From: Minisyncoccota bacterium
GTDB taxonomy: Bacteria > Patescibacteriota > Minisyncoccia > Phycocordibacterales > UBA6065
Reading direction: 5' to 3'
Length of the DNA: 64,000 nt
NCBI GenBank assembly: GCA_041661645.1
Contig: JBAZUA010000003.1
Coordinates: 86,841 to 150,840, forward strand
Positions 13,496 through 62,638 of this stretch are shown in pieces. The translations under genes were made by a program, and so were the position numbers. Every line of letters starts with the position of its first letter. Positions within the stretch are counted from its first letter, which is position 1. The notes beneath the pieces were generated by a model. It did not search any database, was not told the DNA's origin, and saw only the letters and a list, made by a program, of their open reading frames with translations.

Positions 13496-14038
13496 ATGTC
13501 CTATTCCGTATACAGCACTCGCGGCTTCATTCTCGGAAGCGCGCCTTCGGGTGAGGCGGGCAAGACGTATTTCCTATACACCGAGCAGTTCGGGCTTGTC
13601 CGCGCCACGGCTATCGGCGTCCGCCACCTCAAGTCGAAGCTCCGCTATAATCTCGAGGATTACGGTTTCGTCACCTTTTCGCTGGTACGAGGCAAGGAGT
13701 TCTGGCGCATCACGGGTGCGGTGTCGGAAGCGGGCGCGGGCCACGACAGTCCTACGGGGCAGGACCTGCTCCAGGCCCGCGCCCGCATACTCAGCTTCAT
13801 GAAGCGCCTTGTCCAGGGCGAGGAACGCAACGACGATCTCTTTGTGGTGCTCCTCAGCCTTTTCGCCCAAGACGCATCGACGCTCGCGACTAAAGGGGAC
13901 CTCGTTGATTTCGAGACGCGCATTCTCGCCCGCTGCCTTGCCGCTCTCGGGTACGTAGACCTGGCCTCCATTGAGGGCATGGAACAGAGGGAGATGATTG
14001 TGGCGATCAACAAGGCCCTCAGGGAGAGTCATCTCTAG
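13496..14038 (+). CDS. recO: DNA repair protein RecO-like (short form)
   Basis: N-terminal OB-fold pattern (GFILGSAPSGEAGKTYFLYTEQFGLVRATAIGVRHLKSK) resembling the RecO N-domain; shorter than typical RecO. Confidence 0.45.
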   Translation: MSYSVYSTRGFILGSAPSGEAGKTYFLYTEQFGLVRATAIGVRHLKSKLRYNLEDYGFVTFSLVRGKEFWRITGAVSEAGAGHDSPTGQDLLQARARILSFMKRLVQGEERNDDLFVVLLSLFAQDASTLATKGDLVDFETRILARCLAALGYVDLASIEGMEQREMIVAINKALRESHL

Positions 14039-14076
14039 GAACTCCGAGGGCATCTCAGCGTGATATACTTTTAGCT

Positions 14077-16014: not shown

Positions 16015-16024
16015 GGAAAACAAC

Positions 16025-17419
16025 ATGAACAAAGAAAAAACAGAAAAGACAGACACCATGGAAAATCTCATATCCCTCCTCAAAAGGCGCGGATTCATAT
16101 TTCAGGGATCGGAAATCTACGGAGGTCTCGCCGGAACCTGGGACTACGCGCCCCTCGGCGTCGCCCTCAAGAACAATGTAAAGGGCCTCTGGTGGAAGAG
16201 GTTCGTCACTGACCGTGACGATATGTATGGAATGGACGCTGCGATACTCATGAATCAGAACGTGTGGAAGTCCTCCGGGCATGTTGCAGGATTCGCCGAT
16301 CCTCTCGTCGAAGACAAGAAGACCAAGAAGCGATTTCGAGCGGACCATCTCCTTGAGGAGGCGGGCGTAAATCCAAAAGGGATGTCACTCGATCAGATGT
16401 CATTGGTCATGAAGGAGAAGGGTATCAAGAGCCCTGATGGCAACGAGCTTTCTGACGTGAAGCAGTTCAACATGATGTTCAAGACGCATGTCGGCGCCAT
16501 GGAGGACGAGACGGCCATATCATATCTTCGTCCGGAAACGGCCCAGGGTATGTTCGTCAATTTCAAGAACATTCTCGACACCATGCATCCAAAGCTCCCG
16601 TTCGGCATGGCCCAGATAGGAAAAGCATTTCGAAACGAGATTGCCCCTCGTGATTTCATATTCCGCACCCGCGAGTTCGAGCAGATGGAGATCGAGTACT
16701 TCGTCGACCCAAAGAACTGGGAGGCAACCTTCGACCATTTCGTTTCTCAAGTTCACGCGTACACCGACGACGTCGGCCTTCCCAAGGAGACTGTGCATGA
16801 GCTCGAGATAGCGAAAGAGGACCTCGCGCACTATTCGAAACGCACCATCGACTTCGAGTTTGACTATCCTTTCGGCAGGAAGGAGCTCTATGGACTCGCC
16901 TACAGAACGGACTTCGACCTCAAGGCTCACAGCCAGGGAAGCAATGTCGACCTCTCGTACTATGACGAGGAGTCAAAGGCTCGCTTCGTCCCTCATTGCA
17001 TCGAGCCATCATTCGGCGTCGATCGAACCGTGCTCGCCGTACTCTCGTCCGCGTATCGCGAGGACGAGCTGGGCGGCGAGAAGCGTGTCTACCTCAAGCT
17101 CTCTCCCAACGTCGCGCCGATAAAAATAGCGGTGTTTCCACTTCTCAAGAACAAGGAAGCCCTCACGGGCAAGGCCCGCGAGATTCACGCCGTCCTTCGC
17201 AGGGAATTCGGCGCCGTCCAGTACGACGAGACCGGATCCATCGGCAAGCGCTATCGCAAGCAGGACGAGATTGGCACGCCGTTTTGTGTCACCATTGATT
17301 TCGAGACCATAGAAAAAGACGGATCATTCGTCACCGTTCGTGATCGCGACACGGGTGCGCAGGAGAAGGTAAAGCTCGCCGAACTCGTGTCATACCTCTC
17401 GCAGAAGCTGGGAAGGTAG
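16025..17419 (+). CDS. glyQS: glycyl-tRNA synthetase (class II, alpha2 type)
   Basis: N-terminus RRGFIFQGSEIYGGLAGTWDYAPLG; class II motifs; C-terminal anticodon-binding domain. Confidence 0.9.
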   Translation: MNKEKTEKTDTMENLISLLKRRGFIFQGSEIYGGLAGTWDYAPLGVALKNNVKGLWWKRFVTDRDDMYGMDAAILMNQNVWKSSGHVAGFADPLVEDKKTKKRFRADHLLEEAGVNPKGMSLDQMSLVMKEKGIKSPDGNELSDVKQFNMMFKTHVGAMEDETAISYLRPETAQGMFVNFKNILDTMHPKLPFGMAQIGKAFRNEIAPRDFIFRTREFEQMEIEYFVDPKNWEATFDHFVSQVHAYTDDVGLPKETVHELEIAKEDLAHYSKRTIDFEFDYPFGRKELYGLAYRTDFDLKAHSQGSNVDLSYYDEESKARFVPHCIEPSFGVDRTVLAVLSSAYREDELGGEKRVYLKLSPNVAPIKIAVFPLLKNKEALTGKAREIHAVLRREFGAVQYDETGSIGKRYRKQDEIGTPFCVTIDFETIEKDGSFVTVRDRDTGAQEKVKLAELVSYLSQKLGR

Positions 17420-18052
17420 GATCCTCTCTAATATTTAAAATAAAAAAACTCCCCAGTGACCAATTATGTGGTATGGGGAGGAAAAACAGCCTCTGGCTGG
17501 TTTTCTAAGTTTACTCTCGTAGGCATCAACGATTTACGACAACTCCTGCAGGAGTCGATGGACGTCTTGTTCACCAGTTACCAAACTTTAAGCTGTGAAC
17601 AATCCTAGACGGTTGAACGTCTGTCGTTGATATTTTCCTACTACCTGAGCGTTATGCATACGAAACCAGAACCTAATCAGGCATCGCGTTCCCAGGTTTT
17701 TCCTTTCAGTGTGCTGTGTCTCTGTTTTTACCCTAACTGTCGTTTCTTATTAGGGTACTGGCACTTGTCTCTACTCATCCAATCGAGAAGGCTTTACGCA
17801 TAAAGCTTGGCGCATATCGATATCTCCAGATTATCGACGGCCTTGGTTCTCTTCATGGAACGTCTGAAGCATCATCAGAAATGCTTTTCATATATATCTT
17901 AACATGAGTAACTAGCAAAGTCAAGGATTTATGGCGGATTATTTTTGAGATGCCCCAAAGACGGCTTTATACAACGCTCATTAATAGTTAGAGTCATTCC
18001 GTTTTTTCTGCTAATGTGTATCTACGGTAATTAAACTAGACTTATAAACGCA

Positions 18053-19324
18053 ATGAAACACACCAAAACCATATTGGACAATGGCGTCCGCGTCATCACT
18101 GTGCCCATGGAGGGGAACCCGACCGTAACCGTCATGGTGACGGTGGGTACGGGTTCGTATCACGAGGAGGAGGGGGAGTTCGGCCTCTCGCATTTTCTCG
18201 AGCACATGTGCTTCAAAGGCACGTCCAAGCGACCCACATCGCTTTCCATCACGACCGAGCTCGATGGCATGGGCGCAATCTACAACGCCTTCACCTCAAA
18301 CGAGATAACGGGCTATTACGCCAAGGCCGACAGCAAGCATTTCGACCGCATCGGCGACATTGTCGTCGATATATACAAGAATTCCATATTTCCCGAGGCT
18401 GAGATCGAGAAGGAGAAGGGCGTGGTCTTGGGGGAGATAGACATGTATTCTGACGAGCCCCAGGAGAAGATTTCGGATGCCCTGCGCGAGTTCATGTACA
18501 GGGGACAGGTCGCGGCTCGGCAGATATTAGGCACCAAGGATACCGTTCGCTCGTTCACCCGGGCGGACATACTTCGCTACAGGGACATGCAGTACAAGGC
18601 GCAGAATACTCTCGTCACCATAGCGGGCGGAGTTTCCGAGGATTTCATGTTGTCTTTTGCCCGATCAGCCTTCGGTGACATGTCTTCTGGCGAGGCGCGG
18701 GCTGAGTTCAAGACCGTCGACAGGGAACAGTCTGGCCCCGAGACGGTCTTTCTCGAGAAGGACACTGATCAGGCCCATATGATTCTGGCCTGGAGGACAT
18801 TCGACCGTTCCCACAAGGAGCGCTTTGCCGCCCGCATCGTGAACGCCCTTCTCCGCGGGGGAATGAGCTCGAGGCTTTTCATAAAGCTGCGCGACGAGAT
18901 GGGTTCCGGATATTACATAGGGTCCGGACATGAGACATACAGCACCTTTGGCCAATTCCACATATCTACGGGTACGACCGCGGAGAGGGCTCCTGAAATT
19001 GCTACCGCCATAATTGGCGAGGTGAGACGTCTTCAGGACGAGGTCGTGCCGCAGGGCGAGCTCGAGAAAATAAAGGAGCTCATCAGGTCCCGCGTCCGCA
19101 TGTCCCTCGAGACTTCTGACGGGGTTGCCGATTTTTTTGCCGAACAGGAAATGTTCGAGGACGCGGTGCGCTCTCCCGAAGAGCTTGATGTCGTCCTCTC
19201 GTCTGTTACCGCTGAGGATGTCATTCGCGTCTCGAAAATTCTCTTCGACCCGTGCAGGCTGACCTTCGCCGCCATAGGCAAGGGCATAGACAGGGAAGCG
19301 GTTTCAAAAGCAATCGCAGCGTAG
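18053..19324 (+). CDS. M16 family zinc peptidase (pitrilysin/insulinase-like)
   Basis: Inverted zinc-binding motif HFLEH followed by a downstream Glu (LEHMCFKGT...E). Confidence 0.85.
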   Translation: MKHTKTILDNGVRVITVPMEGNPTVTVMVTVGTGSYHEEEGEFGLSHFLEHMCFKGTSKRPTSLSITTELDGMGAIYNAFTSNEITGYYAKADSKHFDRIGDIVVDIYKNSIFPEAEIEKEKGVVLGEIDMYSDEPQEKISDALREFMYRGQVAARQILGTKDTVRSFTRADILRYRDMQYKAQNTLVTIAGGVSEDFMLSFARSAFGDMSSGEARAEFKTVDREQSGPETVFLEKDTDQAHMILAWRTFDRSHKERFAARIVNALLRGGMSSRLFIKLRDEMGSGYYIGSGHETYSTFGQFHISTGTTAERAPEIATAIIGEVRRLQDEVVPQGELEKIKELIRSRVRMSLETSDGVADFFAEQEMFEDAVRSPEELDVVLSSVTAEDVIRVSKILFDPCRLTFAAIGKGIDREAVSKAIAA

Positions 19325-27782: not shown

Positions 27783-28136
27783 TTATTTGTAGATTAATTG
27801 TAATGTCTGTGCGGTCTTTCGGCCGAATCGATCCCGTGCGTCGAGCTCCATTATATTATATCCGCGGGAGAGAAGTACGCTTTCGCTGAACTTGCCGCTC
27901 TCGTCGGTGAATATCTTGTTGCCGTTGAGCGTCAGGTACGATATGTTCTTTGCCGTCCCTTCGATGGTTATGAGCGATTCGTTCGATATGACTCCATTCC
28001 GAGGGGAGGTGACCTCTATGGTTGGCCCTTTGGCAAAGGCCTGTGCCTGGAAGGCCGCATAGCCGGCAATGACGACGATAAAGGCGAGGATGATCCATAT
28101 CTTCACGAACCTCTTCACTTTCATTCGATCGGTCAT
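27783..28136 (-). CDS. hypothetical membrane-anchored small protein (signal anchor plus beta-rich domain)
   Basis: N-terminal TM helix and a ~90-aa domain ([24 protein letters not shown]...); stop codon abuts the recA start. Confidence 0.4.
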
Positions 28137-30664: not shown

Positions 30665-31444
30665 ATGGAATCACCTCGAATGGACACGGATAAGACGATG
30701 GGAGGCATAATGGTCTTCAGCCAGAATAACCATTTCGCCTATATCTATAAAAAGACCGAGAAGCTCGTCACGGCGGTCTATATGATTACTAATTTCATCA
30801 AGGACAACGAGCCTCTCAAGTGGCGCATTCGAGAGAAGTCTCTCGAGCTCCTCTCCCTTAACGTGTCTCTGAACACGGTGTCCCTCTCGGACAGGAAGGA
30901 CCTTCTCAAGAAGTATCGGGCGCGCTCGGTCGAGATTGTGTCCCTTTCGAGCATCGCCAATCATTCCGGCCTTATCTCAGAAATGAACTGCGATATCCTT
31001 AAAAGGGAATTCAACAATCTTGCTTCAACGATAGAGAAAGACGAAAACAAGAAGGCAAGCGAGGAGACCGTCATTCTGAGTCCGAGCTTTTTTGATACTC
31101 CTATCGCGTCTCAGCAGATCCAGGAACAGACCCAATTGGCCCCAAGGGTAGTTCCCGTGCCGTCTGCCCAAATCGCCCCCATCGCCGCGGCCCCTCAGAA
31201 TGTCCTTTATAAGAGACAGGGGGTCTCACAGGCTACGCCAAGGAAGGCTGAGTCAAAGAACGATCGTCAGGAGTCTATACTTAAGGTCCTTTCAACTCGG
31301 AACAAGCTTTCCGTAAAGGACTTTACCGATACCATCAAAGGCGTGAGCGAGAAAACTATCCAGCGCGAGCTTCTGTCGATGGTTTCCTCGGGTGTCCTTA
31401 AGAAAGAGGGGGAGAGGCGCTGGAGTACCTACTCTATTGCCTAG
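30665..31444 (+). CDS. hypothetical protein with predicted C-terminal winged-helix (HTH) DNA-binding domain
   Basis: C-terminus RQESILKVLSTRNKLSVKDFTDTIKGVSEKTIQRELLSMVSSGVLKKEG resembles a DeoR/HTH_11-type wHTH; Gln/Pro-rich linker; start uncertain. Confidence 0.4.
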   Translation: MESPRMDTDKTMGGIMVFSQNNHFAYIYKKTEKLVTAVYMITNFIKDNEPLKWRIREKSLELLSLNVSLNTVSLSDRKDLLKKYRARSVEIVSLSSIANHSGLISEMNCDILKREFNNLASTIEKDENKKASEETVILSPSFFDTPIASQQIQEQTQLAPRVVPVPSAQIAPIAAAPQNVLYKRQGVSQATPRKAESKNDRQESILKVLSTRNKLSVKDFTDTIKGVSEKTIQRELLSMVSSGVLKKEGERRWSTYSIA

Positions 31445-31946
31445 GGCTCAAGCCGCTTGCCTTTAGGGTCATTTTGGTGTAGTATTGATGGGTGGATAGC
31501 AGTTATCCACATTCCATTATTTGAGGCCATTTGCACGCAAATGCCTCAAATTATATACTTATGGGAAGTCCCTGTGAGTATTCCTTGGCCCTTGAAAACC
31601 GAATAGCGATTTCAATCACCGATAATCTGAATTTGATTCCGGACGGAATGCCGTATTTCCGAATAACCACTTCATCCTATCAACTATCCCCGAGCCTTGT
31701 GTCGATCTCTCGGGCGAATCAAAAGTTCGCTCGAGAGAAAAATGAGTATCGGGGAATAGTGGAGCGATGGACGTGACGAGTAATATCGTCACGGCCCATG
31801 CGCACACATTCCTTCTCGTTGCCGTCGAAGCGTGAGAGGGAGTGACGGCCGGCTTTAGCTTAGTCACACAGAAGTCTGATATTGCGGACAATTAAAAGTT
31901 ATCCCGCGGTCCAGGCTTCTTCATTACTTAAAGTACACACTTATAT

Positions 31947-33890
31947 ATGTCAACCAATAAAATCGTTGCGGCAGCAGTGGGATTCTCACTCGCCTTCGCA
32001 GCTTTCGTAGGAGTTGGAGCAGCATCGGCAGGCGCACAGTCTATGACTTTGAGCCAGCTCGTTGACCTCTTCATCTCTCTCGGAATCATCTCTTCTGACA
32101 AGGCAGCAGCAGCAAAGGCAGCTGTTACCTCTTCCGCAACCGTCGCAGCTACTACCTTCAGCAAGGATCTCACCATCGGTTCTACCGGTGCTGATGTTTC
32201 CGCTCTCCAGGCAGCAGTCGGCGTAACTCCTGCTACTGGCTACTTCGGTGCAATCACCAAGGCAGCTGTTCAGGCTTACCAGACTTCAAAGGGAATCAGC
32301 GCTACCGGTTACGTAGGACCACTCACCCGAGCGGCTCTCAACGGATCAGTAACGACTACGACCACGACCACCACTACGACCCCTTCGACCACCACGACCA
32401 CGACCGTAGTTAACTCTGGCGTAGAAGGAATTCTTACCGCAGACAAGGCTTCTATCTCTAACTCGACCGTTTACGAGGGAGACACGATGCACACTGTTCT
32501 CGGTATCAAGCTCCAGGCCCGACTCTCTGACATCAACGTACAGCGCGTTCGATTGAACCTCGGTGCAGATACTTCTATCTACACGAAGGCATTCAAGACG
32601 ATGTACCTCGTTGACGACGCAGGAAAGGTCATCGCTCAGGCAGACCTCAACTCAAACACTGTTGTAAAGGATAGCTCTGTCTATCTCCTTACCTTCGGTG
32701 GATTCAACTACGCAGTTGCAAAGGATACTACCAAGTACCTCTGGGTTAAGGCTGATGCTTACTCGTCGTTCAAGACCACTGGAAGCACGAACTGTGCTTC
32801 TACGGCCTCGACTTGTACCATCGCTCTCGCCGACAGCAACGGAGTTCGAGGAGTTGACGGAGCAGGTATTGATCAGAATGCTGGTGGAACCACCGGTTTC
32901 GCTCAGACCATTACCCTCCAGACCAGCCTCATCGAAAACGCTACCCTTGACCTTTCTGTCAGCCCATCAAACGTCAAGACTGGCGATGTAGTTGCTTCGG
33001 AAGGTGCAAACAATGACGAGCTTGATCAGATGTCAGTTCTCGTGTTTGACGTTCGCGCAAACAAGGACTCACTCGACATCACTGACCTCACTGCAAGCAT
33101 CACTTCGACCGCAGCTCTCGCTACCGCAACGACCGCTTACCTCTACGATGGTTCAACCCTCGTCCAGACTGAGTCGATCAACGGTACGACCGTAACCTTC
33201 TCTGACATCAGCAACCTCTCTGTCGCAAAGGACACCACTAAGTCCCTTACGCTCAAGATTGATGTTCGAAGCGCCGTCGCTACTCCTGATTCGTTCGCCG
33301 CATCTATCGCTGCAAGCGGTATAACTGCTGAGAACTCATTGGGTACTACTGTACGCAACACTTCAGCTATCACTGGTGAGAATCAGATTGTCCGAAACGC
33401 AGGTCCAGTATTCACTCTTAAGAGCATCGTCAACGGTACTCCTTCGAAGACTACTGACCAGAACGGTCAGGCAACTTCTACCTTGCCTGTAACCTTCAAC
33501 CTCAACATTGCTGCCAAGGGATCAGACATCACCTTCGGTGCAAACGGTGGGGTTTGGGCTCTCGCAACGACCGGTCAGGCTGTCTTCTACGAGAACAACG
33601 TACTTACCGCAACCTCAAGCATCATGGCTTCTGGCTCTAACGTATCTGTTCTCTACACGGCACCTTCGACTGGTGTAACTAACGGAACCGACGTCTTCAC
33701 TCTTGCAAAGGGTGCAAACATTGACCTTCCTGTTATCGTAAGCATCACGGTTGGAAAGGCTTCTGGATCTGCAGCATACTCTGTTGGATTCAGCGGATTC
33801 AACTGGGGTCTCTCTGGAGCGGCTACTACGACTTCTACCTTCATGTCTGGTAAGACTGAGTGGAGAAGCACGAACGTAACCCTTCCTTAG
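31947..33890 (+). CDS. secreted cell-surface protein: signal peptide, peptidoglycan-binding domain, poly-Thr linker, large beta-rich domain (S-layer-like candidate)
   Basis: Signal peptide (AFAAFVGVGAASAGAQS); PG_binding_1-like repeat (GADVSALQAAVGV..TGYFGAITKAAVQAYQ...GYVGPLTRAAL); TTTTTTTTTPSTTTTTT linker; codon usage differs from neighbours (more GCA/GCT/TCT); own terminator. Confidence 0.65.
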   Translation: MSTNKIVAAAVGFSLAFAAFVGVGAASAGAQSMTLSQLVDLFISLGIISSDKAAAAKAAVTSSATVAATTFSKDLTIGSTGADVSALQAAVGVTPATGYFGAITKAAVQAYQTSKGISATGYVGPLTRAALNGSVTTTTTTTTTTPSTTTTTTVVNSGVEGILTADKASISNSTVYEGDTMHTVLGIKLQARLSDINVQRVRLNLGADTSIYTKAFKTMYLVDDAGKVIAQADLNSNTVVKDSSVYLLTFGGFNYAVAKDTTKYLWVKADAYSSFKTTGSTNCASTASTCTIALADSNGVRGVDGAGIDQNAGGTTGFAQTITLQTSLIENATLDLSVSPSNVKTGDVVASEGANNDELDQMSVLVFDVRANKDSLDITDLTASITSTAALATATTAYLYDGSTLVQTESINGTTVTFSDISNLSVAKDTTKSLTLKIDVRSAVATPDSFAASIAASGITAENSLGTTVRNTSAITGENQIVRNAGPVFTLKSIVNGTPSKTTDQNGQATSTLPVTFNLNIAAKGSDITFGANGGVWALATTGQAVFYENNVLTATSSIMASGSNVSVLYTAPSTGVTNGTDVFTLAKGANIDLPVIVSITVGKASGSAAYSVGFSGFNWGLSGAATTTSTFMSGKTEWRSTNVTLP

Positions 33891-33941
33891 TAGGAAAGTT
33901 ACTGGACATAGCGCTGAATCGAAAGGTTTAGCCTAGTTCAA

Positions 33942-33976
33942 GCAAAAGCCGCACGAGCAATCGTGCGGCTTTTGCG
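33942..33976 (+). terminator. rho-independent terminator after the surface-protein gene
   Basis: CAAAAGCCGCACGAgcaaTCGTGCGGCTTTTGCG. Confidence 0.8.
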
Positions 33977-34042
33977 TTGGGAGAAAAGGAGATTGTTCTA
34001 TATAATAGGGCTATGAAAAAGGCATCGAACGAGGGCGGGTTC

Positions 34043-35005
34043 ATGAAGAAGATAGTCATAGTGACCGTGGCGGCCTGCATTGCATTTGTATTCCTATTCA
34101 AGTTTCTCCAGGATTTTCAGGCGACATCGTTCATCAACCTTTCCTCGGGCACGAATTATACGAGCCGATATCAGTCCGCGACGAACCCTTTGCTCGACTT
34201 TGGCAATTCCTCATATAGCCCATATTCGGACGATTCGAACAGGAGCGTGCCAAACTCTGATGGCAAGTTCACGTCGCCATATGCGGCGCAGGTAAGGTTG
34301 TCTTCTGGTAGCGCGAGCCAGGCTAATCAGACCTATGAGGAATACGTGACGCTCACCAACAGCGGCGCGCCCATCAACATTACGGGCTGGGTCATTGCAA
34401 ACGGCAAGGGGTCGAGGCCGATAGAGAATACTCAGATAAGCTATGCATATCCGGTAGCCGATTCTGCGACCATAGGGCAGGGGACCGAGTTCGTCTCCCC
34501 GGACGGCAAGTTTCAGGTTGGACCGATAGTTCTCAAGAGGGGCGACACGGCAATTCTTCAGACGGGAAGGCCCTTCTCGCAGTTTCCCTTTGCCCTCTAC
34601 ACGAGCTTCCGCGAGAACATGTGCATGGGCTATCTCGACAAATATCCTCTCGCGCCGCAGCTCAGCCTGTCATGCCCGTTCCCGACCAGCGACCCTTTCA
34701 TTCGAACGGTGACAGATCAGTGCTATGACTATCTCAACTCGCTTGCCCGCTGCCAGAGCCCGCAGGATGCGGTAAAGGGCCCGGAGAAGGATAGATATGA
34801 TCTTCTGACCTCCCAGTGCAAGTCTTTTGTCACCTCTCGCCTGAATTATCAGAGCTGCGTGGAGAATAATAGGGACGCCCAGGGCTTCTCGACCAATCAG
34901 TGGCGCGTGTTCCTCAACAGGGATCGCGAGCTTTGGGCAAGCTCCCGCGAGACCATCACCCTTTACGACGCTCAGGGATATGTGGTGGATAGGTTAACTT
35001 ACTGA
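34043..35005 (+). CDS. lamin-tail-domain (LTD) protein with N-terminal membrane anchor and C-terminal Cys-rich domain
   Basis: LTD motif EEYVTLTNSGAPINITGWVI; N-terminal TM; 8 Cys in the C-terminal 100 aa; alternative start at 34013. Confidence 0.65.
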   Translation: MKKIVIVTVAACIAFVFLFKFLQDFQATSFINLSSGTNYTSRYQSATNPLLDFGNSSYSPYSDDSNRSVPNSDGKFTSPYAAQVRLSSGSASQANQTYEEYVTLTNSGAPINITGWVIANGKGSRPIENTQISYAYPVADSATIGQGTEFVSPDGKFQVGPIVLKRGDTAILQTGRPFSQFPFALYTSFRENMCMGYLDKYPLAPQLSLSCPFPTSDPFIRTVTDQCYDYLNSLARCQSPQDAVKGPEKDRYDLLTSQCKSFVTSRLNYQSCVENNRDAQGFSTNQWRVFLNRDRELWASSRETITLYDAQGYVVDRLTY

Positions 35006-35046
35006 TTTCTTTAGGATTTCTTCGGCGGTCCTTCATGGCCTAATTG

Positions 35047-35076
35047 ATATTGTTTCTTCATATGAAGAAACAATAT
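35047..35076 (+). terminator. 30-bp perfect palindrome ATATTGTTTCTTCATATGAAGAAACAATAT plus T-tract, spanning the start codon of the next gene
   Basis: Perfect dyad centred on CATATG; the ATG at 35062 lies in the 3' arm; followed by TTTTTATTT. Confidence 0.55.
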
Positions 35077-36357
35077 TTTTATTTCACGATGATTGGAAGG
35101 AGGGTCTTTTGTCTGTCTGTCGCCATTCTGTCTGCCTTTGTCGCGCCAGTTGTTGCCTGCGCCCAGGTTATCATCACGGAGATAATGTACGATGTGCCCG
35201 GCCCGGATACGGGAAGGGAATGGATCGAGGTGAAAAATTCCGGTTCAGAGCCCGTAGATCTTTCAACGTGGAAACTGTTCGAGGCCAATACAAATCACAA
35301 GATAGTCGCCGTCGGAGCGGCGATCGTCGCACGGGGTTCCTTTGCCGTGATCGCTGATGTTCCTGAAAAGTTTATTGCCGATAATCCCGGTTTCTCCGGT
35401 CAGGTGTTCGATAGCACGTTCTCGCTTTCGGGCGACGGGGAGACGTTGGTCGTTCGTGATTCGTCCGGGGCCGATAGCGATTCGGTCTCGTATGACCCAT
35501 CGATCGGAGCCAAGGGAGACGGCCTTTCGTTGCAAAGGACATCCGATGGGAGGTGGATTGCCGCCAATCCTACCCTGGCCGCGCTGACCATCGCCACCCA
35601 GTCTGAGACAGTGAGGGTTCCTTCCAGTGAAACCGAAATATCCGCATCCGAGGCGCCTCCCTTGGCCGTGTCCGCCCCACAGGATTCTCAGGCAAATTCA
35701 GCCTATGCGAGCCAAGCCTTGGCGAACACGTCGGCAGATCAGTCTGACCTCGAGGTGACGTCTGGTCGGACGAGGCTCGGTTTCGTGGATACCGCGCTTG
35801 AGTTTCGGGCCAAGGTTCGAAAGGGAGGAAGTCCCACATCGACCATCGAGCATATTTGGTCCATGGGGGATGGGTCAATTTACCACGGGACGATCATAGA
35901 TCATGCCTACAGATTCGGCGGCCTTTATTCGGTCATTTTGAACAGTTCGACAAAACATTCTCAGGCCGTATCAAAGGTGTCCGTAAGGATTCTCGAACCG
36001 AGAATCTCCATTGTCGCCGTAACTGATCAGTATGTCGAGATACGAAACGATGATTCATCCGAGCTCAACCTGGGTGGCTGGTCAATCCAAACCGAGGTGA
36101 ATAGGTTTATCGTGGGCGACGATACGATAATGGCCCCTGGCATATCCGTGAAGTTTGCCTTTGCCGCGATTCCTCGGTTCGCCCCGCCCAAGGAATTCAT
36201 TCGCATCCTCAGCCCCTTCGGTCGCATCTTTGCCGAGTGGCACCCTGGCGTCGTGGCGGGGATAGCCCCGGATGGGGTGCTCATCGAATTGCCAGAGGGG
36301 ATGACGAGGGAATCACTCGAGACACTGTTTCGTAATGTTGTAAACAGCCATGAGTAA
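35062..36357 (+). CDS. tandem lamin-tail-domain (LTD) secreted protein
   Basis: LTD1 IITEIMYDVPGPDTGREWIEVKNSGSEPVDLSTWKL; LTD2 YVEIRNDDSSELNLGGWSI; N-terminal signal/anchor; Ser/Ala-rich linker. Confidence 0.7.
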   Translation: MKKQYFYFTMIGRRVFCLSVAILSAFVAPVVACAQVIITEIMYDVPGPDTGREWIEVKNSGSEPVDLSTWKLFEANTNHKIVAVGAAIVARGSFAVIADVPEKFIADNPGFSGQVFDSTFSLSGDGETLVVRDSSGADSDSVSYDPSIGAKGDGLSLQRTSDGRWIAANPTLAALTIATQSETVRVPSSETEISASEAPPLAVSAPQDSQANSAYASQALANTSADQSDLEVTSGRTRLGFVDTALEFRAKVRKGGSPTSTIEHIWSMGDGSIYHGTIIDHAYRFGGLYSVILNSSTKHSQAVSKVSVRILEPRISIVAVTDQYVEIRNDDSSELNLGGWSIQTEVNRFIVGDDTIMAPGISVKFAFAAIPRFAPPKEFIRILSPFGRIFAEWHPGVVAGIAPDGVLIELPEGMTRESLETLFRNVVNSHE

Positions 36358-39295
36358 AAGTGCACGCACCATAGCCTTCACCATCGTCTTTGCTGTTGGC
36401 GCATTTGGCTTTTTAAATGATGTTTTTGCGGATACCATCGTTACGGGTCAGTTAAATTCTGACACGACATGGACGAAGGAGGGAAGTCCCTACATCGTAG
36501 GGACATATCGGGTCAATAAGGGCGTCACCCTCACCATTGAGCCCGGTGTCACCGTTGGCTTCGGCACCGGGATGCCCTCCCTTGATGTATATGGAAGTCT
36601 TATTGCGCATGGCACTTCCGCCGAGCCAATAACCATCGCCTATACCTATCAACAGGCCTATATTCTTCAAATCCAAGTCTTCGGGGGAGTCATGGATTTG
36701 TCGTATCTCACAATCTCGGGTTTTGCCAGCCTGTCTGGACTAAACGGGGCGCATATCAGTTTTGATCATGTGAAATCGATTGATTTTCAGATATTCGTGT
36801 CCGCCTCCTCTCTCGTGATGAATGATTCGGTGTGTTTAAACACCGGACATCCTGTGACCATCCGTGTGGCCGTGAACAAGGGCGTGATCCCTACTGTGCT
36901 TATTCGAAATTCGGTTATCTTGGGAAAGAGATATTATGCCCTTTCTGCTGACTCTGGAGCTGCGGTTGATGTGAGAAATAACTTTTGGGGTGACGTATCT
37001 GGTCCCTACCACTCTGTCTTTAACAAGACTGGAAAGGGGGACCCTATCTCTGGCAATGTTGATTTCTCCCCATGGCTTTCCAGGGACCCTTTCGCATGCT
37101 GTTCAAGCGTCCTTTTCCTTCCGGGCTTCGAGGGCAGTCGGCTCTATGTGTCAGATGATCCATCGAGCACCAGTACCTCGTCCGGCGATAACAGGATTTG
37201 GGAGCCAAACCGCGATAAGGACATTGAATCGCTTGGCCTTACCCCTTCTGGCGCGAGTGCGAATAGGGTGTACTCAAAGATTGGGGATATCATCGACGAG
37301 GCGTATGTTTCTCTCGCGGGACCCAACATATACAAGTCATTTATGGCTGATATGAATGATCTCGTCGCCACGGGTACCGTAAAGAGTTGGCTCCCGGCCG
37401 CATACGATTGGAGGCTTTCTCTGGATCAGTTGCTTAATATGGGGAACGCGTCATCGAGCGGTTTGATTTCGTATCTTGATTCAACATCTACTCCGTATCT
37501 GGTCCAGGAGTTCTATAAGCTCGCCCGCGAGTCAAAGACCGGCAGGGTGAGCATCGTGGCCCATTCAAACGGCGGCCTTCTTGCCAAGGCTTTGGTGTCG
37601 TATGTCGAGAGTCGCGGGGATGCGGATCTCGTGGACAAGATACTGTTCGTGGCCGTGCCCCAGGTGGGAACCCCTCATGCGATCGGGGCGTTGCTGCATG
37701 GCTTCAAGGAGGGGATATGGCCCTTTACCTCGCCGCAGGCAATGCGTCGACTTGGTCAGAATATGCCGGGCGCATACAATCTTTTGCCGTCGCTTCGATA
37801 CGCTGACTTCGTCTCTAGCCCCATCATCAGTTTTTCGTCGGCCACATCATCGCCATTGCTTGTAGATATGCATGACGCGTATGGCGATGGCATCAGACTT
37901 TTTTCATCCCTCGTAGGTTTCTTGAAGGGCAGCGAGGGCAGGCGGGCGCCCACCTACGCTGACCTGTCTGCGCCCGAGATCCTCAGCCCGTCGCTTCTCG
38001 ATAGCGCGTCCACTACGCATGCGGTTCTTGATGCCTGGATTCCATCACCGAGCTCTGAACTGTTTGAGATCGCGGGCAGGGGCCTCGACACTGTTTCGGG
38101 AATTGAATATTACGAGGGAAGGAAGGGCAGGAAGAAGGCGCTTCTCTATAGGCCGATTTTTTCCTCTGATGGTGATGGCACCGTCATGCTCTCGAGCGCC
38201 TGGGCAACACCCTCGACCGAGAATGTCCATAGATACTGGGTTGACCTCAAGCTCGCGAGCGCGGGACTTAATCGCAATCGGGACCATTCGAACATTCTTG
38301 AGGTCGACGATTTGAGGGACTTCATAAAGGAGATACTTTCCGAGGCTCCCCATGCCATACGTCATCGGGCGCAGGTTGCCGATGCCTCAGTCGTGCCCAA
38401 GAAGCCATTTCAGAAAACCACTCGCGTTTTGCTGCATTCTCCCGATGCTTCTCTGGGCGTTAATGACAGCCAGGGGAGGCATACCGGAAGGTCATCATCT
38501 GGATTCGTCGAGACGCAGATTCCCGGCAGCCAGTATCAGGAGCTTGGCGATGTCACATATGTGAGCATCCCTGATTCCCCGTCATCGGATGGTCCCGCTC
38601 CCGTCATCCAGATAACGTCAGGTTCCACAACCTCCTCGATGTCTGATTCGGCCTTTTCGGTCGATGTCGAGCGGGCCACGGATGACGATGTTGCCACCTC
38701 GTCTACCTTTGAGGACGTGGTGGTTCCGCCCGGCGGTACCCTGACCATTGTGCCTATTTCAGATGCGTCTTCATCGACGGTCCCCGTCCTCCAGATAGAC
38801 GATAACGGTGATGGTACGGTCGATAGGGAGGTGTTGCCGGGCGCGCCTATTCCCGAACCTGTGTCCGCGTCAGAACCCGAACCAGGGGTGGAACTAGAAC
38901 ATGTGCCCGAATTTGGCGCCCGTCATCTGTCATCGAGTGGCGGAAGGTCTTCGGCCCGATCATCTGTGCGCGTCACTTTGCCGACCCCGTCTCCCTCATC
39001 GACTGAGTCGTTTTCAATAGCCACGACACAGGCCGCCTCTGCGACTGAGACTTTACCCATGATCGTTAATCACGCGTCGCTCAAAGACGCATCATTGGAA
39101 ATTGCCGACAAGGAGGTTCCTCCCGGGGCAGGGCATCGGTCGACCAACCTGGCGGCGGCATATATCAGCGTGGCCACGACAGCGACCTCGGCCGCGGCTT
39201 CGGGCCCGAGGGCGAGCCTTTCCCTCATCTCGGCTTTTCTCGTCGCCCTTGCCATCCTCTGGCTCTTGTCTTGCAAAATATCGAAATCCAGGTAA
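36350..39295 (+). CDS. large secreted protein: N-terminal right-handed beta-helix-like domain, LCAT-like (PF02450-type) phospholipase/acyltransferase alpha/beta-hydrolase domain, Ser/Pro-rich stalk and C-terminal membrane anchor
   Basis: Signal peptide; beta-helix-like repeats (GVTLTIEPGVTVGFG); LCAT-family hallmarks AAYDWRLS and nucleophile elbow VAHSNGG; C-terminal hydrophobic helix plus KISKSR; start ATG overlaps the upstream stop (ATGAGTAA). Confidence 0.6.
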   Translation: MSKSARTIAFTIVFAVGAFGFLNDVFADTIVTGQLNSDTTWTKEGSPYIVGTYRVNKGVTLTIEPGVTVGFGTGMPSLDVYGSLIAHGTSAEPITIAYTYQQAYILQIQVFGGVMDLSYLTISGFASLSGLNGAHISFDHVKSIDFQIFVSASSLVMNDSVCLNTGHPVTIRVAVNKGVIPTVLIRNSVILGKRYYALSADSGAAVDVRNNFWGDVSGPYHSVFNKTGKGDPISGNVDFSPWLSRDPFACCSSVLFLPGFEGSRLYVSDDPSSTSTSSGDNRIWEPNRDKDIESLGLTPSGASANRVYSKIGDIIDEAYVSLAGPNIYKSFMADMNDLVATGTVKSWLPAAYDWRLSLDQLLNMGNASSSGLISYLDSTSTPYLVQEFYKLARESKTGRVSIVAHSNGGLLAKALVSYVESRGDADLVDKILFVAVPQVGTPHAIGALLHGFKEGIWPFTSPQAMRRLGQNMPGAYNLLPSLRYADFVSSPIISFSSATSSPLLVDMHDAYGDGIRLFSSLVGFLKGSEGRRAPTYADLSAPEILSPSLLDSASTTHAVLDAWIPSPSSELFEIAGRGLDTVSGIEYYEGRKGRKKALLYRPIFSSDGDGTVMLSSAWATPSTENVHRYWVDLKLASAGLNRNRDHSNILEVDDLRDFIKEILSEAPHAIRHRAQVADASVVPKKPFQKTTRVLLHSPDASLGVNDSQGRHTGRSSSGFVETQIPGSQYQELGDVTYVSIPDSPSSDGPAPVIQITSGSTTSSMSDSAFSVDVERATDDDVATSSTFEDVVVPPGGTLTIVPISDASSSTVPVLQIDDNGDGTVDREVLPGAPIPEPVSASEPEPGVELEHVPEFGARHLSSSGGRSSARSSVRVTLPTPSPSSTESFSIATTQAASATETLPMIVNHASLKDASLEIADKEVPPGAGHRSTNLAAAYISVATTATSAAASGPRASLSLISAFLVALAILWLLSCKISKSR

Positions 39296-39466
39296 TATCA
39301 GTATTCAAAGGCCGGAGAAAGCAGGCGACTCGCGAGAGTCCTAATCCCGAAAGGGCAAGCCTGCCGAGGTCGAAACGCATGTCGCAAGGCATGTCGTCTC
39401 TACTCCAATTCCGGCCCACCGCAAGGTGGCCGGGCCTTTTATTATTAGCGGCTTATCCAACATCAT
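39296..39466 (+). promoter_or_regulatory. candidate ribosomal protein L10 leader (autoregulatory 5' UTR of rplJL)
   Basis: 170-nt structured untranslated region directly upstream of rplJ with the hairpin GGCCCACCgcaaGGTGGCCGGGCC; location-based inference. Confidence 0.3.
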
Positions 39467-41992: not shown

Positions 41993-42885
41993 ATCTCTAT
42001 TCCGATTATGTTAAACCCTCAATCAAAAGCGGACTAGATAAGACCAGTTTCTGGCCTTGTTTAAGTACCGCTCAGACCGAGCGGTTTTTAATTTTCGGGA
42101 GGTGCTGTTATTTGAAATACGAACCCCGTCCCACTAGTCTTCCGCCCTCAAAAGCGGATGGTCTTTTCAAGAGTGGAGACGACTACATTCGTACGTTAGA
42201 TCGTGCGGATGTAAAACCTGCATCTTTCTCCCAGGAAGAGAGGATGCAGTGCAACAGGTAAAAATTAAATTGTATGAGTGTTCGTTGTAAGCGAACACTC
42301 TCATTGAGAATGAGTTTAAGTGGTTTTTAAATTTCCTAATAGGAAATTTAAGAGCATATGGTGGATGCCTTGGCTTCTGAGAAGCGATGAAGGACGTTGC
42401 GTAGCGACGATATGTTCGGGGAGCTGCCGAGCGAGCTTTGATCCGAACGTTTCCGAATGAGGAAACTCCATGTCGAGTGATCGACATGACCTTGGCCTTT
42501 ATGGTCAAGGAGCATACCCTGGGAAGTAAAACATTTCAGTACCAGGAGGAAGAGAAAACAATGTCCGCGTACTGCGGACGATATTTCCTTAGTAGTGGCG
42601 AGCGAAAGGGAAAGAGCCCAAACCTAGTCTTAATCGTGCGGTATGTCGCAAGACGTGCAGCGCGATTAAGACTGGGGGTTGTAAGATGATGATGTCACTA
42701 TTTATAGTGGAAAGAGTTACAAAATGTTTTGTTAGCAGAATTGGCTGGAAAGCCAGACCCTAGTGAGTGATAGTCTCGTATGCGAAAATAAAACATCTCT
42801 TTTATTGTCATTCTTGAGTACCCCAGGACACGAAAAGCTTGGGGGAATCTACCGGAACTAACCGGTAAGGCTAAATATTCCAGAA

Positions 42886-42918
<33 letters not shown>

Positions 42919-43505
42919 CGAAAAGAACCCCGGAGAGGGGAGTGAAATAGACCTGAAACCATATGCTTACAAGGAGTCGGAGCGGTAATTTATTACCGTC
43001 ACGGCGTGCCTATTGAAGAATGAGCCAACGAGTTAATGCATGCTGCAAGGCTAAGGGCTTGAATGCCCGGAGCCGCAGGGAAACCGAGTGTGAATAGCGC
43101 GACTCAGTAGTATGTATTAGACCCGAAGCCGGGTGAGCTTGCCATGTGCAGGTTGAAGTTTGTCGAAAGACAGATGGAGGACCGAACGCTAGAGACGTGC
43201 AATACTCTGCGATGACATGTGGTATGGAGTGATAAGCTCATCGAACTCGGTAATAGCTGGTTCTCTCCGAAATATGTTTAGGCATAGCGTCGTATGTTCC
43301 CACGAGGGGTAGAGCACTGGAAGATTCTGACAGGTAGAAATACCGCAGAACCTATCAAACTCCGAATACTCGTGGTTAAAAGTACGGCAGTAAGACCGTG
43401 GGGGCTAAGCTCCACAGGTCAAAAGGGAAACAGCCCGCATCTCAATTTAAGGTCCCAAAATTCATGCTAAGTACAAGTGAGGTGGTGAATCTTCTCTGAC
43501 GGTGA

Positions 43506-43537
<32 letters not shown>

Positions 43538-44389
43538 GAAAGCGTAACAGCTCACTCACTTAGAGGGTTTGCGCCGCAGATGATCGGGGTTAAAGCATGA
43601 TACCGAAACTGAGGATTGCATCCATATTCGTATGGGTGCACTGGTAGGAGAGTATTCTACTCTGCGATGAAGGCAAAGGGGTGACCCATGCTGGAGCGTG
43701 TAGAAGTAAGAATGTTGGCACAAGTAACCACAATGCGGATGAGAAATCCGCACGCCGGAAGATTAAGGTTTCCTTCGCAATGGATTTCAGCGAAGGGTTA
43801 GTCGGGCCTAAGGGGATGGTGAAAACCGTACCTGATGGACACATGGTTAATATTCCATGACTGGCGTTTGGTGCGATGGGAGGACGGAGCACAGTATGTG
43901 TAGCCCCTTATTGGATTGGGGTTGTTGGTCTCAGGGCGATATGCGAGGAAAATCCCGCATTCTGCATTTATTTGCGAGCCTAAGGACAGACGGGAAGGCT
44001 GGGTTCGCCCAGCGGAACTACACAGAGCGAGCTTTCAAGAAAATTCTCTAAGCATAACCAAACGCTATCCGTACCGAAAACCGAAACAGGTGATCGGCTC
44101 GAGGAGAGCAAGGCGAACGAGTGAAGGTCCTTCAAGGAACTCGGCAAAAAATCAGCCGTAAGTTAGCGATAAGGCTTGCCCTCTCTTTATTGAGGGGGCC
44201 GCAGCGAAAGTATGCCTGGCGACTGTTTATCAAAAACACAGCTCCCTGCGAACTCGTAAGAGGATGTATAGGGGGTGACACTTGACCAATGCCAGAAGGT
44301 CAACCAGCGGCGTTGCCACGTATTTATACGTGGTGGTGACTGCTGTAAGCCCTGGTGAATGTCGGCGGTAACTATAACCGTCCTAAGGT

Positions 44390-44606
44390 TCTGCATCTTT
44401 CGCAAGAAGGGTGCAGAAGGACTGGGACGGTCATAGCAGTGTTAGATGAACAAGAACCTAATAGAAGTTACACAAATAGCTACCTGACATCGCAGTAATG
44501 CATTGTCAGTCCACACATGATCAACAAGAGACCAACGTCATGGATCCGAACTCGTCAATTCGTTGATGGGAGGATTAAGATAGAGTCCGACTTAGAGGAA
44601 TAGTTG
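44390..44606 (+). ncRNA. putative group I intron (217 nt) in 23S, between E. coli-equivalent U1931 and A1932 (CCUAAGGU | AGCGAAAUUCC)
   Basis: Exon sequence is contiguous with E. coli once 44390-44606 is removed; 5' exon ends in U, insert ends in G; internal AAGATAGAGTCCGAC resembles the group I J8/7-P7 3' strand. Confidence 0.5.
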
Positions 44607-45267
44607 AGCGCAATTCCTTGTCAGGTAAGTTCTGACGCGTTGAATAGTGTAACGTCTGGGCAACTGTCTCGAAGGACAGCTCGGTGAAAATACAATCCCG
44701 GTGAAGATGCCGGGTACCTGCAGTTAGACGAAAAGACCCTAGAAGCTTTACTATAGCTTGATATTGAGTATACGATTCTGATGCGTAGCATAGACGTGAG
44801 GATTTGAAGTGCGCTTTCGGGTAGCATGGATCCGCCAGTGAAATAGCGTTCTTCAGTGTTGTATATTCTAACCCCGAGGGCAAAAACCGCGGGAGACAGT
44901 ATCTGGTGGGTAGTTTTAGTGGGGCGCTATCCTCCTAAAAAGTAACGGAGGAGCCTATTAAGGTCAGTTAGCCGTGAATGGAAACCATGGCGATAGTGTA
45001 TGGGCATAAACTGGCTTAACTGTAAGACGTACATGTCGAGCAGATGCGAAAGCAGAGCTAAGTGAACCGACGGATCGCGTTAGATGCGGCCGGAGATTAT
45101 CGGACAAAAGCTACCCTAGGGATAACAGGCTCGTTCCGCCTAAGAGTTCATATCGACGGCGGAGTTCGGCACCTCGATGTCGGCTCATCTTATCCTGGGG
45201 CTGGAGAAGGTCCCAAGGGTTTGGCTGTTCGCCAATTAAAAAGGTACGTGAGCTGGGTTCAGACCGT

Positions 45268-45556
45268 TCAGAAGGTGATTGCGCATAGTCGCGCGATCAT
45301 GCACTGGACAGTCTGAATCCCTCGGACATCATGAGGAAAAAAGAGACAACAACCAATCACGGCGCCCGCAACGAGCAATCATTGCGGAGCCAGTTAACTA
45401 ATATCGGTGAAGCCCGACAGGCGCAAGCTTGGGGTAATACCGAGGGAAGCAGAGTCATATCTGCACCCGTAGAGACTACACGTTAACCTCCACATCGAAA
45501 TAATGAGATGTGGATGAAGATATAGTCCAATGCACAGAGTAATTTGTGAAAACATG
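45268..45556 (+). ncRNA. putative group I intron (289 nt) in 23S at the E. coli-equivalent L2593 site (GAACGU | CGUGAGACAG)
   Basis: Exons rejoin to GAGCTGGGTTCAGACCGT/CGTGAGACAGGTTGGTC; 5' exon ends in U, intron ends in G; contains GTAGAGACTACACG (P7 5'-like GACUA) and GAAGATATAGTCC, which matches the Tetrahymena J8/7-P7 element AAGAUAUAGUC. Confidence 0.6.
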
Positions 45557-45956
45557 CGTGAGACAGGTTGGTCTCCTATCTACTGCAGGCGTTGATTCTT
45601 GAGGAGTTTTGCTTCTAGTACGAGAGGACCGAAGTGAACGGACCGCTGGTCTGCCTGCTGTCACGCCCGTGGCAACGCAGGGTAGCTATGTCCGGAACGG
45701 ATAACCACTGAAAGCATCTAAGTGGGAAGCCGCCTCCAAGATAAGGAATCGTTTGAGGGCCCTAGGAGACTACTAGGTTGATAGGCTTTAGGTGTACACG
45801 CAGCAATGCGTTGAGCCGAGAAGTACTAATTACCCGATCTTATTAGGAAATTTATGAATCACTCATGGCGAGGGCCATGATTACTGATTCTTGATGATTT
45901 AATTATATTTGTTGCAAGTTCGTATTCCTGAAAACAGCACGATTGAATTCTGTGTT

Positions 45957-46062
45957 CTGGTGATTTAACGCGGTGGCACCACCTCTTCCCATCCCGAACA
46001 GAGAAGTTAAACGCCGTAGTGCCGATGATAGTCCTTATGGGCGAAAGTAGGTAGTCGCCAGT
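45957..46062 (+). rRNA. rrf: 5S ribosomal RNA
   Basis: GCGGTGGCACCACCTCTTCCCATCCCGAACAGAGAAGTTAAACGCCGTAGTGCCGATGATAGT...GTAGGTAGTCGCCAG; flanking processing stem GATTGAATTCTGTG / CACAGAATTCAATC. Confidence 0.85.
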
Positions 46063-46081
46063 ACACAGAATTCAATCAAAG

Positions 46082-62637: not shown

Positions 62638-62638
62638 C

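Follow-up and report, generated by a model that had tools for sequence, protein, structure and literature searches.

A 64,000-nt stretch of a Minisyncoccota bacterium assembly ([GenBank:JBAZUA010000003.1], positions 86,841 to 150,840; assembly GCA_041661645.1), hereafter the window, carries four consecutive plus-strand open reading frames (ORFs), g1 to g4, which span 7,349 bp at positions 31947-39295 (Table 1). The last of them, g4, encodes a predicted surface-tethered enzyme whose modelled fold is closest to animal lysosomal phospholipase A2 (LPLA2), and it is the main subject of this report. The cluster is flanked by genes for FtsK, RecA and EF-P upstream and for ribosomal proteins L10 and L12 downstream. 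All four proteins have a hydrophobic segment at the N terminus, and g4 has another at the C terminus, as seen both in the sequences and in the helices of AlphaFold2 (AF2) models; signal peptides were called from hydropathy, cleavage motifs and these helices, not by a dedicated predictor. A first-pass annotation, made from the sequence alone, had described an island of four plus-strand genes with signal peptides or anchors, inserted between core genes, at 31445-39295. The genes, their hydrophobic N termini and the core-gene flanks were all found at this place. The first part of that interval (31445-31946) is a non-coding leader, not a gene, and the genes themselves begin at 31947.

The AF2 model of g4 was built on 52 homologues (pLDDT 82, pTM 0.78). 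After the signal peptide, the protein consists of a right-handed parallel beta-helix, a hydrolase domain, an immunoglobulin (Ig)-like beta-sandwich, a disordered stalk and a transmembrane helix. The hydrolase domain matches the Pfam family LCAT (lecithin:cholesterol acyltransferase; PF02450) with 44.5 bits (cut-off 21), residues 327-625 corresponding to model positions 65-370 of 392, and PF02450 is precomputed on nearly all of 120 g4 homologues. When the model was compared with the PDB by Foldseek, the top 13 matches were all LPLA2, LCAT or Tle4, the latter a type VI secretion system (T6SS) phospholipase. LPLA2 ranked first (E 1.5e-10 to 5e-10, target template modelling (TM) score 0.67-0.71), followed by LCAT (E 1e-9 to 2e-7) and Tle4 (3e-8). 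The alignment to LPLA2 extends over 332 of 376 residues, and the g4 fold contains the LCAT/LPLA2-specific subdomains beyond the alpha/beta core; ordinary lipases align only over this core of about 200 residues, and generic esterases score much lower than LPLA2. The relation to LPLA2 is clear only with the structure model, because a search of the PDB with the single g4 sequence gave no match and a search with the 52-sequence profile gave only marginal matches, around the nucleophile.

Ser406, Asp609 and His646 are invariant in the 52-sequence alignment, as are the YDWR motif and F256/P258/G259 (FxPG). The nucleophile motif HSxGG is kept in 119 of 120 homologues, the sole exception being a fragment. 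The three residues probably constitute the LCAT/LPLA2 catalytic triad, an equivalence of order and spacing rather than of residue-level superposition. The PF02450 match, the triad with its GxSxG-type elbow and the fold all place the domain in the LCAT/LPLA2 family, to which the first-pass annotation had assigned it on the basis of YDWR and AHSNGG; both motifs are indeed present and the proposed catalytic serine is retained in the homologues. The beta-helix and the C-terminal anchor of that description also stand, the former in the AF2 model and the latter as a transmembrane helix. No Pfam family is detected for the beta-helix in this protein, but its fold is seen in the model and g4 homologues carry the beta-helix family PF13229. 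In the 52-sequence alignment the beta-helix shows no invariant charged residue and no conserved catalytic residue, so that its role is probably one of binding and not a second catalytic activity. Taken as a whole, the prediction for g4 is an exported enzyme with an intact catalytic apparatus, held on the membrane of its own cell by the C-terminal helix and the stalk.

The g4 family is large. It comprises more than 1,260 clusters at 90% identity, at least 568 species genomes and, at E<=1e-30, 1,504 clusters at 50% identity. The records listed are all Patescibacteria-type metagenome-assembled genomes (MAGs). One NCBI protein, from a Candidatus Paceibacterota MAG, is identical to the window g4, and on this ground the organism is assigned to that group of ultra-small bacteria. 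An N-terminal extension of 30-880 aa is present in all of the top 150 members, and in nearly all of them it exceeds 150 aa. Neighborhoods of the homologues were compared as a set of loci with L numbers, of which L002 contains the closest relative of the window's g4 (54% identical). Within this pair the hydrolase is 70% identical and the beta-helix 37%. In most genomes g4 sits away from the slot between ftsK and rplJL. In 65 of 85 loci, a small protein of about 130-145 aa with 3-4 transmembrane (4-TM) segments is encoded directly 3′ of the g4 homologue. This 4-TM partner has a C-x(4-9)-C loop and the motif SLITY.(M/V)REEVF..W, and does not fall into any Pfam family. The window lacks it, and so do L002, L004 and L087; g4 in these loci ends in a true transmembrane helix, and in many other g4 homologues the C terminus is formed by a QTASVY motif and an amphipathic helix. 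Possible roles of the partner are those of an anchor for the QTASVY tail, an immunity factor or a lipid acceptor. Two further ideas were discarded: the transmembrane anchor of the window g4 shows no detectable homology to the 4-TM partner from which it might have been derived by fusion, and QTASVY plus helix does not appear to be a general C-terminal sorting signal, given that, among the loci sampled, QTASVY is confined to g4 homologues and that no sorting-signal model of NCBIfam gives a match.

The two genes preceding g4 encode lamin tail domain (LTD) proteins, as had been proposed. In g3 the assignment comes from Pfam, with LTD at 79.6 bits in two stretches that enclose a PKD domain (PKD_4, 27.3 bits). 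In g2 the Pfam LTD score, 32.0 bits, lies below the cut-off of 34.3, and the identification depends on the AF2 model (pLDDT 79), whose best Foldseek matches are the Ig-folds of lamin B1 and lamin A/C (TM score 0.63-0.66, probability 1.0, E 4e-3); PF00932 is precomputed on 73 of 74 g2 homologues. Thus, of the domains named at the outset, LCAT, PG_binding_1 and the LTD of g3 exceed their Pfam cut-offs, and the LTD of g2 is seen as a lamin-type Ig-fold. The g2 protein consists of a transmembrane segment (aa 10-34), a disordered region (aa 38-75) and an LTD beta-sandwich (aa 94-202 and 293-329) that is split by a helical insert of about 85 aa (34625-34870) with six invariant cysteines (C204, C221, C237, C247, C269 and C282). 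Its family includes 74 clusters of uniform length, 72 of them at least 45% identical and the other two 36-38%. The look-up of a second g2-like protein of the same MAG (P0181) returned no record. The g3 signal peptide is cleaved after A-x-A. A lipoprotein reading of g3, based on a VVAC lipobox, was rejected: the cysteine is not conserved and the orthologues have A-x-A type cleavage sites. LTDs are known to accompany hydrolases that are exported and membrane-associated, and have been proposed to direct proteins to membrane structures (PMC6085458). By analogy, g2 and g3 may be accessory surface or membrane-directing modules.

The first gene, g1, encodes a secreted protein with a signal peptide (aa 1-32), a PG_binding_1 domain (aa ~73-133), a poly-Thr linker and a T/A/S-rich region of about 490 aa. 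The PG_binding_1 domain (PF01471) scores 40.6 bits against a Pfam cut-off of 23, and the g1 family profile finds only peptidoglycan-binding domains in the PDB (1LBU, 4LPQ and 5NM7; E 7e-9 to 2.5e-7; residues ~71-144). For residues 156-647, neither Pfam nor the PDB yields a relative. The mature protein has a pI of 4.9 and 2 Cys. Identity to the L002 protein is 85-94% over the signal peptide and anchor part and 35% over the C-terminal third. These features fit a wall protein held by its N-terminal PG_binding_1 domain, with a fast-evolving distal part that is probably exposed. Of the first description of g1 as a peptidoglycan-binding, surface-layer (S-layer)-like protein, the peptidoglycan-binding half is borne out; the S-layer half received no direct support, as no SLH or other S-layer domain was found in Pfam or the PDB. 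The composition, the long leader, the strong terminator and the conserved anchor next to a variable distal part are all compatible with an S-layer protein without being diagnostic, and such an identity is possible. The g1 family comprises at least 429 clusters. Many contigs with g1 homologues measure no more than ~2.0-2.4 kb, roughly one gene length, and assemblies may break there from strain-level variation.

The gap upstream of g1 is 380-530 nt long in all six orthologous loci aligned. It contains a promoter-like CTTGCC-N17-TAGTAT near the 5′ end, an invariant DnaA-box-like TTATCCACA at 31503-31511 (alignment of six regions), an invariant TTTGTGTCGA block and further conserved blocks. RNAalifold predicts 29 pairs in this ~450-nt leader, 7 of them with compensatory changes, including two conserved stems, and no Rfam family matches it. 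The ORF 31561-31776 of the public annotation lies inside the leader and is probably spurious. A replication origin near g1 was also considered and rejected: sites resembling TTATCCACA occur 9 times in the window, against 9 expected.

Transcription signals divide the cluster into two units. The hairpin and T-run that follow g1 have an equivalent in 8 of 8 orthologous loci inspected, and by these signals g1 is a separate monocistronic unit with a long structured leader and a strong terminator. The promoter-like sequence before g2 has a -10 box that ends 6 nt before the g2 ATG, and TATAAT is found 6-8 nt upstream of this ATG in 7 of the 9 clusters compared, the window included. A box at this distance points to a leaderless g2-g3-g4 mRNA, and suggests that these three genes form a leaderless operon, consistent with the loss of the anti-Shine-Dalgarno (anti-SD) sequence described below. 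The four genes had initially been treated as one unit, which does not agree with the leader and terminator of g1 and the separate start of g2-g4. The overlap of the last two genes, in contrast, was read correctly: the g3 stop and the g4 start share ATGAGTAA, and g3 and g4 overlap or are separated by at most ~12 nt in all eight orthologous clusters inspected except L004. The perfect palindrome at the g3 start, GATATTGTTTCTTCATATGAAGAAACAATATT, would form an RNA hairpin (folding free energy (dG) -15.5, z -3.9), and shorter hairpins are present at this place in L006, L007, L008 and L028. Its role may be that of an attenuator, a processing site or an element of translation initiation. The structured region between g4 and rplJ, for which no Rfam family reaches the gathering score, is probably an operon terminator and/or an autoregulatory element of the L10-leader type.

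The lack of Shine-Dalgarno sites noticed at the outset is borne out. The 3′ end of the 16S rRNA (window 58980-59025) reads GGATTATTTC instead of GGATCACCTCCTT and is without the CCTCC anti-SD, and an SD-like motif precedes 3 of 38 genes, compared to 17% of random 16-mers. A TATAAT-like box is found 6-10 nt before the ATG at several genes of the window. These observations suggest that leaderless mRNAs may be widespread in this genome.

The order ftsK, g0, g1, g2, g3, g4, rplJ-rplL recurs in about 10 species-level genomes at 35-66% identity, where g0 is an extra gene with a helix-turn-helix (HTH)-like end between ftsK and g1. The full order is found in L002, L004/L009, L006, L007, L008, L011, L014, L028 and L087, with outer genes lost at contig ends in some. 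The same order in about 10 genomes means that the arrangement is not due to chance. It also speaks against a variable island, a possibility raised at the outset: in the close lineage this is a syntenic cluster. Between the window and L002, FtsK, L10 and L12 are 89-95% identical and g1-g4 54-66%, which means that the proteins of the cluster evolve several times as fast as the core proteins on either side. Across the wider class, the slot between ftsK/g0 and rplJL varies in content. In other Paceibacterota it holds g0, a g1-like protein and g4 but no LTD genes. In L086, a Taylorbacteria MAG ([GenBank:JACRJQ010000008.1], 5388-18584), it keeps g0-g1-g2 without g3-g4, in place of which there are genes for a metallo-beta-lactamase (MBL)-fold hydrolase, YceI, YHYH, a DnaJ/Peptidase_S41 protein and others, followed by rplJL. 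An LTD gene thus again adjoins a hydrolase gene in L086. Of 80 loci, about 10 have LTD genes in the vicinity of g4; in two of these, L042 and L054, the arrangement is not orthologous.

In 15 loci a g0 homologue stands next to ftsK and a g1-like gene; in every case it runs divergently from ftsK and lies upstream of the g1-type gene. The conserved winged-HTH-like motif at its C terminus (...IQRELL.MV..G.LKK.GERRWS.YS) makes g0 a possible regulator of the surface locus.

Table 1. Coordinates of the features of the g1-g4 locus (window positions) and examples of the 4-TM partner in related loci
Feature	Position	Strand	Remarks
g0	30665..31444	+	259 aa; C-terminal winged-HTH-like end (...IQRELLSMVSSGVLKKEGERRWSTYSIA); weak HTH_DeoR match, E 4e-4
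g1 leader/promoter region	31445..31946	+	conserved, non-coding; no gene
g1	31947..33890	+	647 aa; secreted wall protein, PG_binding_1
Intrinsic terminator after g1	33942..33975	+	hairpin dG -31.1 kcal/mol, z -7.3
Promoter-like TTGGGA-18-TATAAT before g2	33977..34006	+	
g2	34013..35005	+	330 aa; ORF extendable back to 33977; membrane-anchored LTD protein
Palindrome and T-run before g3 start	35046..35077	+	perfect 14+4+14
g3	35089..36357	+	422 aa; ORF extendable back to 35044; secreted LTD-PKD-LTD
g3 LTD1	35155-35493	+	
g3 PKD	35797-35985	+	
g3 LTD2	~36001-36354	+	
g4	36350..39295	+	981 aa; predicted surface-tethered enzyme
g3/g4 junction ATGAGTAA	36350..36357	+	g3 stop codon overlapped by g4 start codon
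g4 signal peptide	36350-36433	+	
g4 right-handed beta-helix	36434-37084	+	residues 29-240; AF2 model
g4 LPLA2/LCAT-type hydrolase	37085-38359	+	residues 250-665; AF2 model, Pfam
g4 YDWR	37403-37414	+	residues 352-355
g4 Ser406 (AHSNGG)	37565-37567	+	
g4 Asp609 (DGDGTV)	38174-38176	+	
g4 His646	38285-38287	+	
g4 Ig-like beta-sandwich	38402-38845	+	residues 689-830; AF2 model
g4 disordered S/A/T/P-rich stalk	38882-39208	+	about residues 845-954, ~110 aa
g4 transmembrane helix	39209-39283	+	residues 954-978, then KISKSR
g4-rplJ intergenic region	39296..39466	+	dG -60.9 kcal/mol, z -4.25; GC hairpin and T-run at end
4-TM partner, examples	L005:11160-11567, L012:13119-13553, L008:12262-12666		range L003, L005-L008, L010-L083

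The biology of the group provides a context for such an enzyme. Lipid synthesis is incomplete in bacteria of the candidate phyla radiation (CPR), and a correlation of lysolipids with Kaiserbacteria and Parcubacteria has been reported; lipidomics points to an origin of the lysolipids in other cells, through a phospholipase A that was invoked but not identified (PMC7242380). The mechanisms of lipid uptake and breakdown in Patescibacteria are likewise stated to be unidentified (PMC11665869). Taking the gene anatomy, folds, catalytic residues, topology signals, conservation and synteny described above as established, we infer the substrate of g4, the source of the lipid and any physical link among the four proteins. 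The reading that we prefer, and to which we give about an even chance, is that of a conserved Paceibacterota (Parcubacteria/CPR) envelope locus of two transcription units, in which the tethered hydrolase g4 deacylates foreign glycerolipids for a lipid-auxotrophic cell and the LTD proteins are accessory. In such a scheme g4 would be exported by Sec and kept on its own membrane by the C-terminal helix and the flexible stalk, and the beta-helix would dock its head on a foreign surface. Outside the wall, the hydrolase would form an acyl-enzyme with a glycerolipid that comes from another cell or from membrane debris, and the acyl chain would be released or transferred, which leaves a lysolipid and a fatty acid for uptake. 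The membrane-anchored g2, with its putatively disulfide-rich insert, and the secreted g3 would act as accessory modules. Host-lipid scavenging of this kind is plausible and agrees with the published lysolipid data (PMC7242380). CPR/Patescibacteria must form membranes although they do not synthesize lipids, a problem still open, and g4 may be a concrete candidate for the phospholipase A that has been invoked. Its predicted fold is closest to a lysolipid-making class of enzymes, it is testable by heterologous expression even for uncultured lineages, and the variable beta-helix is a possible marker of host specificity.

Several observations weigh against this proposal. The identity of g4 to LPLA2 is only ~17%, and its substrate class is suggested by the fold. 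The anchor in its own membrane also puts g4 near the lipids of its own cell. The fast evolution of the beta-helix could reflect relaxed constraint, not host tracking. The Pfam scan in which 30-odd window proteins yielded no lipid-synthesis gene covers only 64 kb of the genome. The adhesin role first suggested for the LTD proteins found no direct support, and g2 is strongly conserved, unlike a host-specific adhesin. Finally, most g4 homologues have no LTD neighbor and L086 keeps g1-g2 without g3-g4; therefore a four-protein apparatus is not required and, as far as gene neighborhoods tell, the g4 enzyme family does not require the LTD proteins.

Whether the four genes form one apparatus at all is a question compatible with any reading of the enzyme. 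They may merely share a surface-protein slot by descent, with g1 and perhaps g2 independent of g4, a view that we hold to be quite possible, if short of an even chance. The separate leader and strong terminator of g1 are in line with it, as are the family sizes (at least 429 clusters for g1 and at least 1,260 for g4, far wider than the 74 of g2), the genomes that contain g0, a g1-like gene and g4 but no LTD genes, and L086. On the other hand, the exact four-gene order is kept down to 35-50% identity in about 10 genomes, and LTD genes reappear near g4 in L042 and L054. As for the enzyme, it might be mainly an offensive, membrane-damaging phospholipase like Tle4/TplE, displayed on the epibiont surface, that breaches the host membrane for nutrients in general, lipid gain being at most a by-product. 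Tle4 is among the top fold matches, but LPLA2, a transacylase/PLA2, is clearly the better match; no T6SS or other injection genes occur in any neighborhood inspected, and the window g4 has intact catalytic residues and yet no small partner gene. We consider this role unlikely.

Alternatively, g4 may be a self-directed housekeeping enzyme in a core envelope-biogenesis locus, remodelling the lipids of its own envelope, either by producing lysolipids against curvature stress in a very small cell or by acting on lipid-anchored wall polymers or lipoproteins. The location of the locus among core genes with conserved synteny, the wide distribution of the family in Paceibacteria-type MAGs and the anchoring of the enzyme in its own membrane would all be expected in this case, and CPR lysolipids have been interpreted as a curvature adaptation (PMC7242380). 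Yet a stalk of ~110 residues and a variable beta-helix are hard to reconcile with a substrate in the adjacent membrane, and housekeeping sits poorly with proteins that evolve several-fold faster than the core proteins beside them; we judge this to be rather improbable. An esterase of polysaccharides or wall polymers, in which the beta-helix would bind glycan, as in pectate or alginate lyases and phage tailspikes, and the hydrolase would strip host capsule or peptidoglycan of acyl groups such as acetyl, is very improbable indeed: the alignment to LPLA2 continues well past the alpha/beta core, the scores of generic esterases are much lower, YDWR, the signature of the LCAT family, is invariant, and the beta-helix is devoid of conserved catalytic residues. 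The proposal of foreign-lipid deacylation can also be extended. Theoretically, the beta-helix/LPLA2-like family, with its 4-TM partner or a fused transmembrane anchor, might be the missing lipid-acquisition machine of Paceibacteria, a surface transacylase that draws acyl chains straight from host glycerolipids and passes lysolipids and acyl groups on to the symbiont membrane, with the fast-evolving beta-helix setting the host range and, in this lineage, the LTD proteins organizing the enzyme in the wall. This is speculative, and we think that its chance of being right is small.

Other features of the window are recorded here. The rRNA genes are unlinked, and their order is unusual: 23S-5S at 42334-46063 and 16S-tRNA-Ile at 57532-59774, 11 kb downstream on the same strand. 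The 23S match is 3,517 nt long versus 2,925 nt for the model, so ~590 nt are inserted; no plus-strand ORF of at least 100 aa lies inside it. Between recA and ftsK, a 117-aa membrane-anchored protein with a Glucodextran_B-like domain is encoded at 27783-28136 (minus strand), and it is found at the same place in L002, L086 and L087. A protein with an Lnb_N (DUF4105) domain (E 2e-38), a periplasmic domain named after lipoprotein N-acyltransferase, is encoded at 56265-57122 (minus strand) and may be relevant to the use of acyl chains in this organism. At 62092-64000 there is a 181-aa secreted Peptidase_S74 protein (the domain serves endosialidase and tail fibres as an intramolecular chaperone); after it comes a protein without a Pfam match, more than 450 aa long, that runs off the end of the window. 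This pair may represent another fibre-like surface structure. A 645-aa protein with a DUF11 repeat, a surface-protein repeat, is encoded at 14077-16014, between a RecO-like gene (13496-14038) and a downstream gene at 16025-17419.

Comparison with known systems may help to place g4. LPLA2 (PLA2G15) and LCAT (PF02450; PDB 4X90, 5BV7 and 6MVD) are of the same fold class. The g4 protein differs from them in being bacterial, in having ~40 residues more in the Ser-Asp region, and in the surroundings of its hydrolase domain, with a beta-helix on the N-terminal side and an Ig-like domain, stalk and transmembrane anchor on the C-terminal side. Tle4/TplE of Pseudomonas aeruginosa (PDB 4R1D, with Tli4) is injected by the T6SS and has no signal peptide, whereas g4 carries a Sec signal and would remain anchored to its producer. 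No T6SS genes of the VgrG, Hcp or PAAR type are present in the window or in the annotated neighborhoods, and no immunity-type small gene stands beside g4 in the window, although the 4-TM protein follows g4 in most loci elsewhere. By its gene context and export signal, then, g4 is not a Tle4-type T6SS effector. Among beta-helix proteins, such as pertactin-type passengers, phage tailspikes and pectate/alginate lyases, g4 stands apart in that it lacks conserved catalytic residues in the helix as well as trimerization or autotransporter domains, and is fused to a lipase.

The ExeM nuclease of Shewanella (PMC6085458) possesses an N-terminal signal peptide and a C-terminal hydrophobic anchor, as g4 does. 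The LTD of known LTD hydrolases is part of the same polypeptide as a nuclease, phosphoesterase or MBL hydrolase; the LTDs of the present cluster are proteins in their own right, apparently co-transcribed with an alpha/beta-hydrolase lipase, and the Cys-rich insert inside the LTD sandwich of g2 is unique. In the searchable literature we found no paper that links LCAT/PF02450 or lamin tail domains with Patescibacteria. What appears to be new is the architecture of beta-helix, LPLA2-like hydrolase, Ig-like domain, stalk and anchor, which among the records seen is restricted to Patescibacteria-type MAGs, together with the insert in g2 and the genes linked to g4, those for LTD proteins in one lineage and for the small 4-TM partner elsewhere. 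The closest precedent in concept is Vampirococcus lugosii, for which a secreted phospholipase has been proposed to recycle host lipids (PMC8080830). The idea is the same, an exported phospholipase that supplies host lipids to a lipid-auxotrophic CPR bacterium. That enzyme, compared here by its description and not by family, belongs to another organism and is encoded by a single gene without beta-helix, stalk, anchor or LTD partners.

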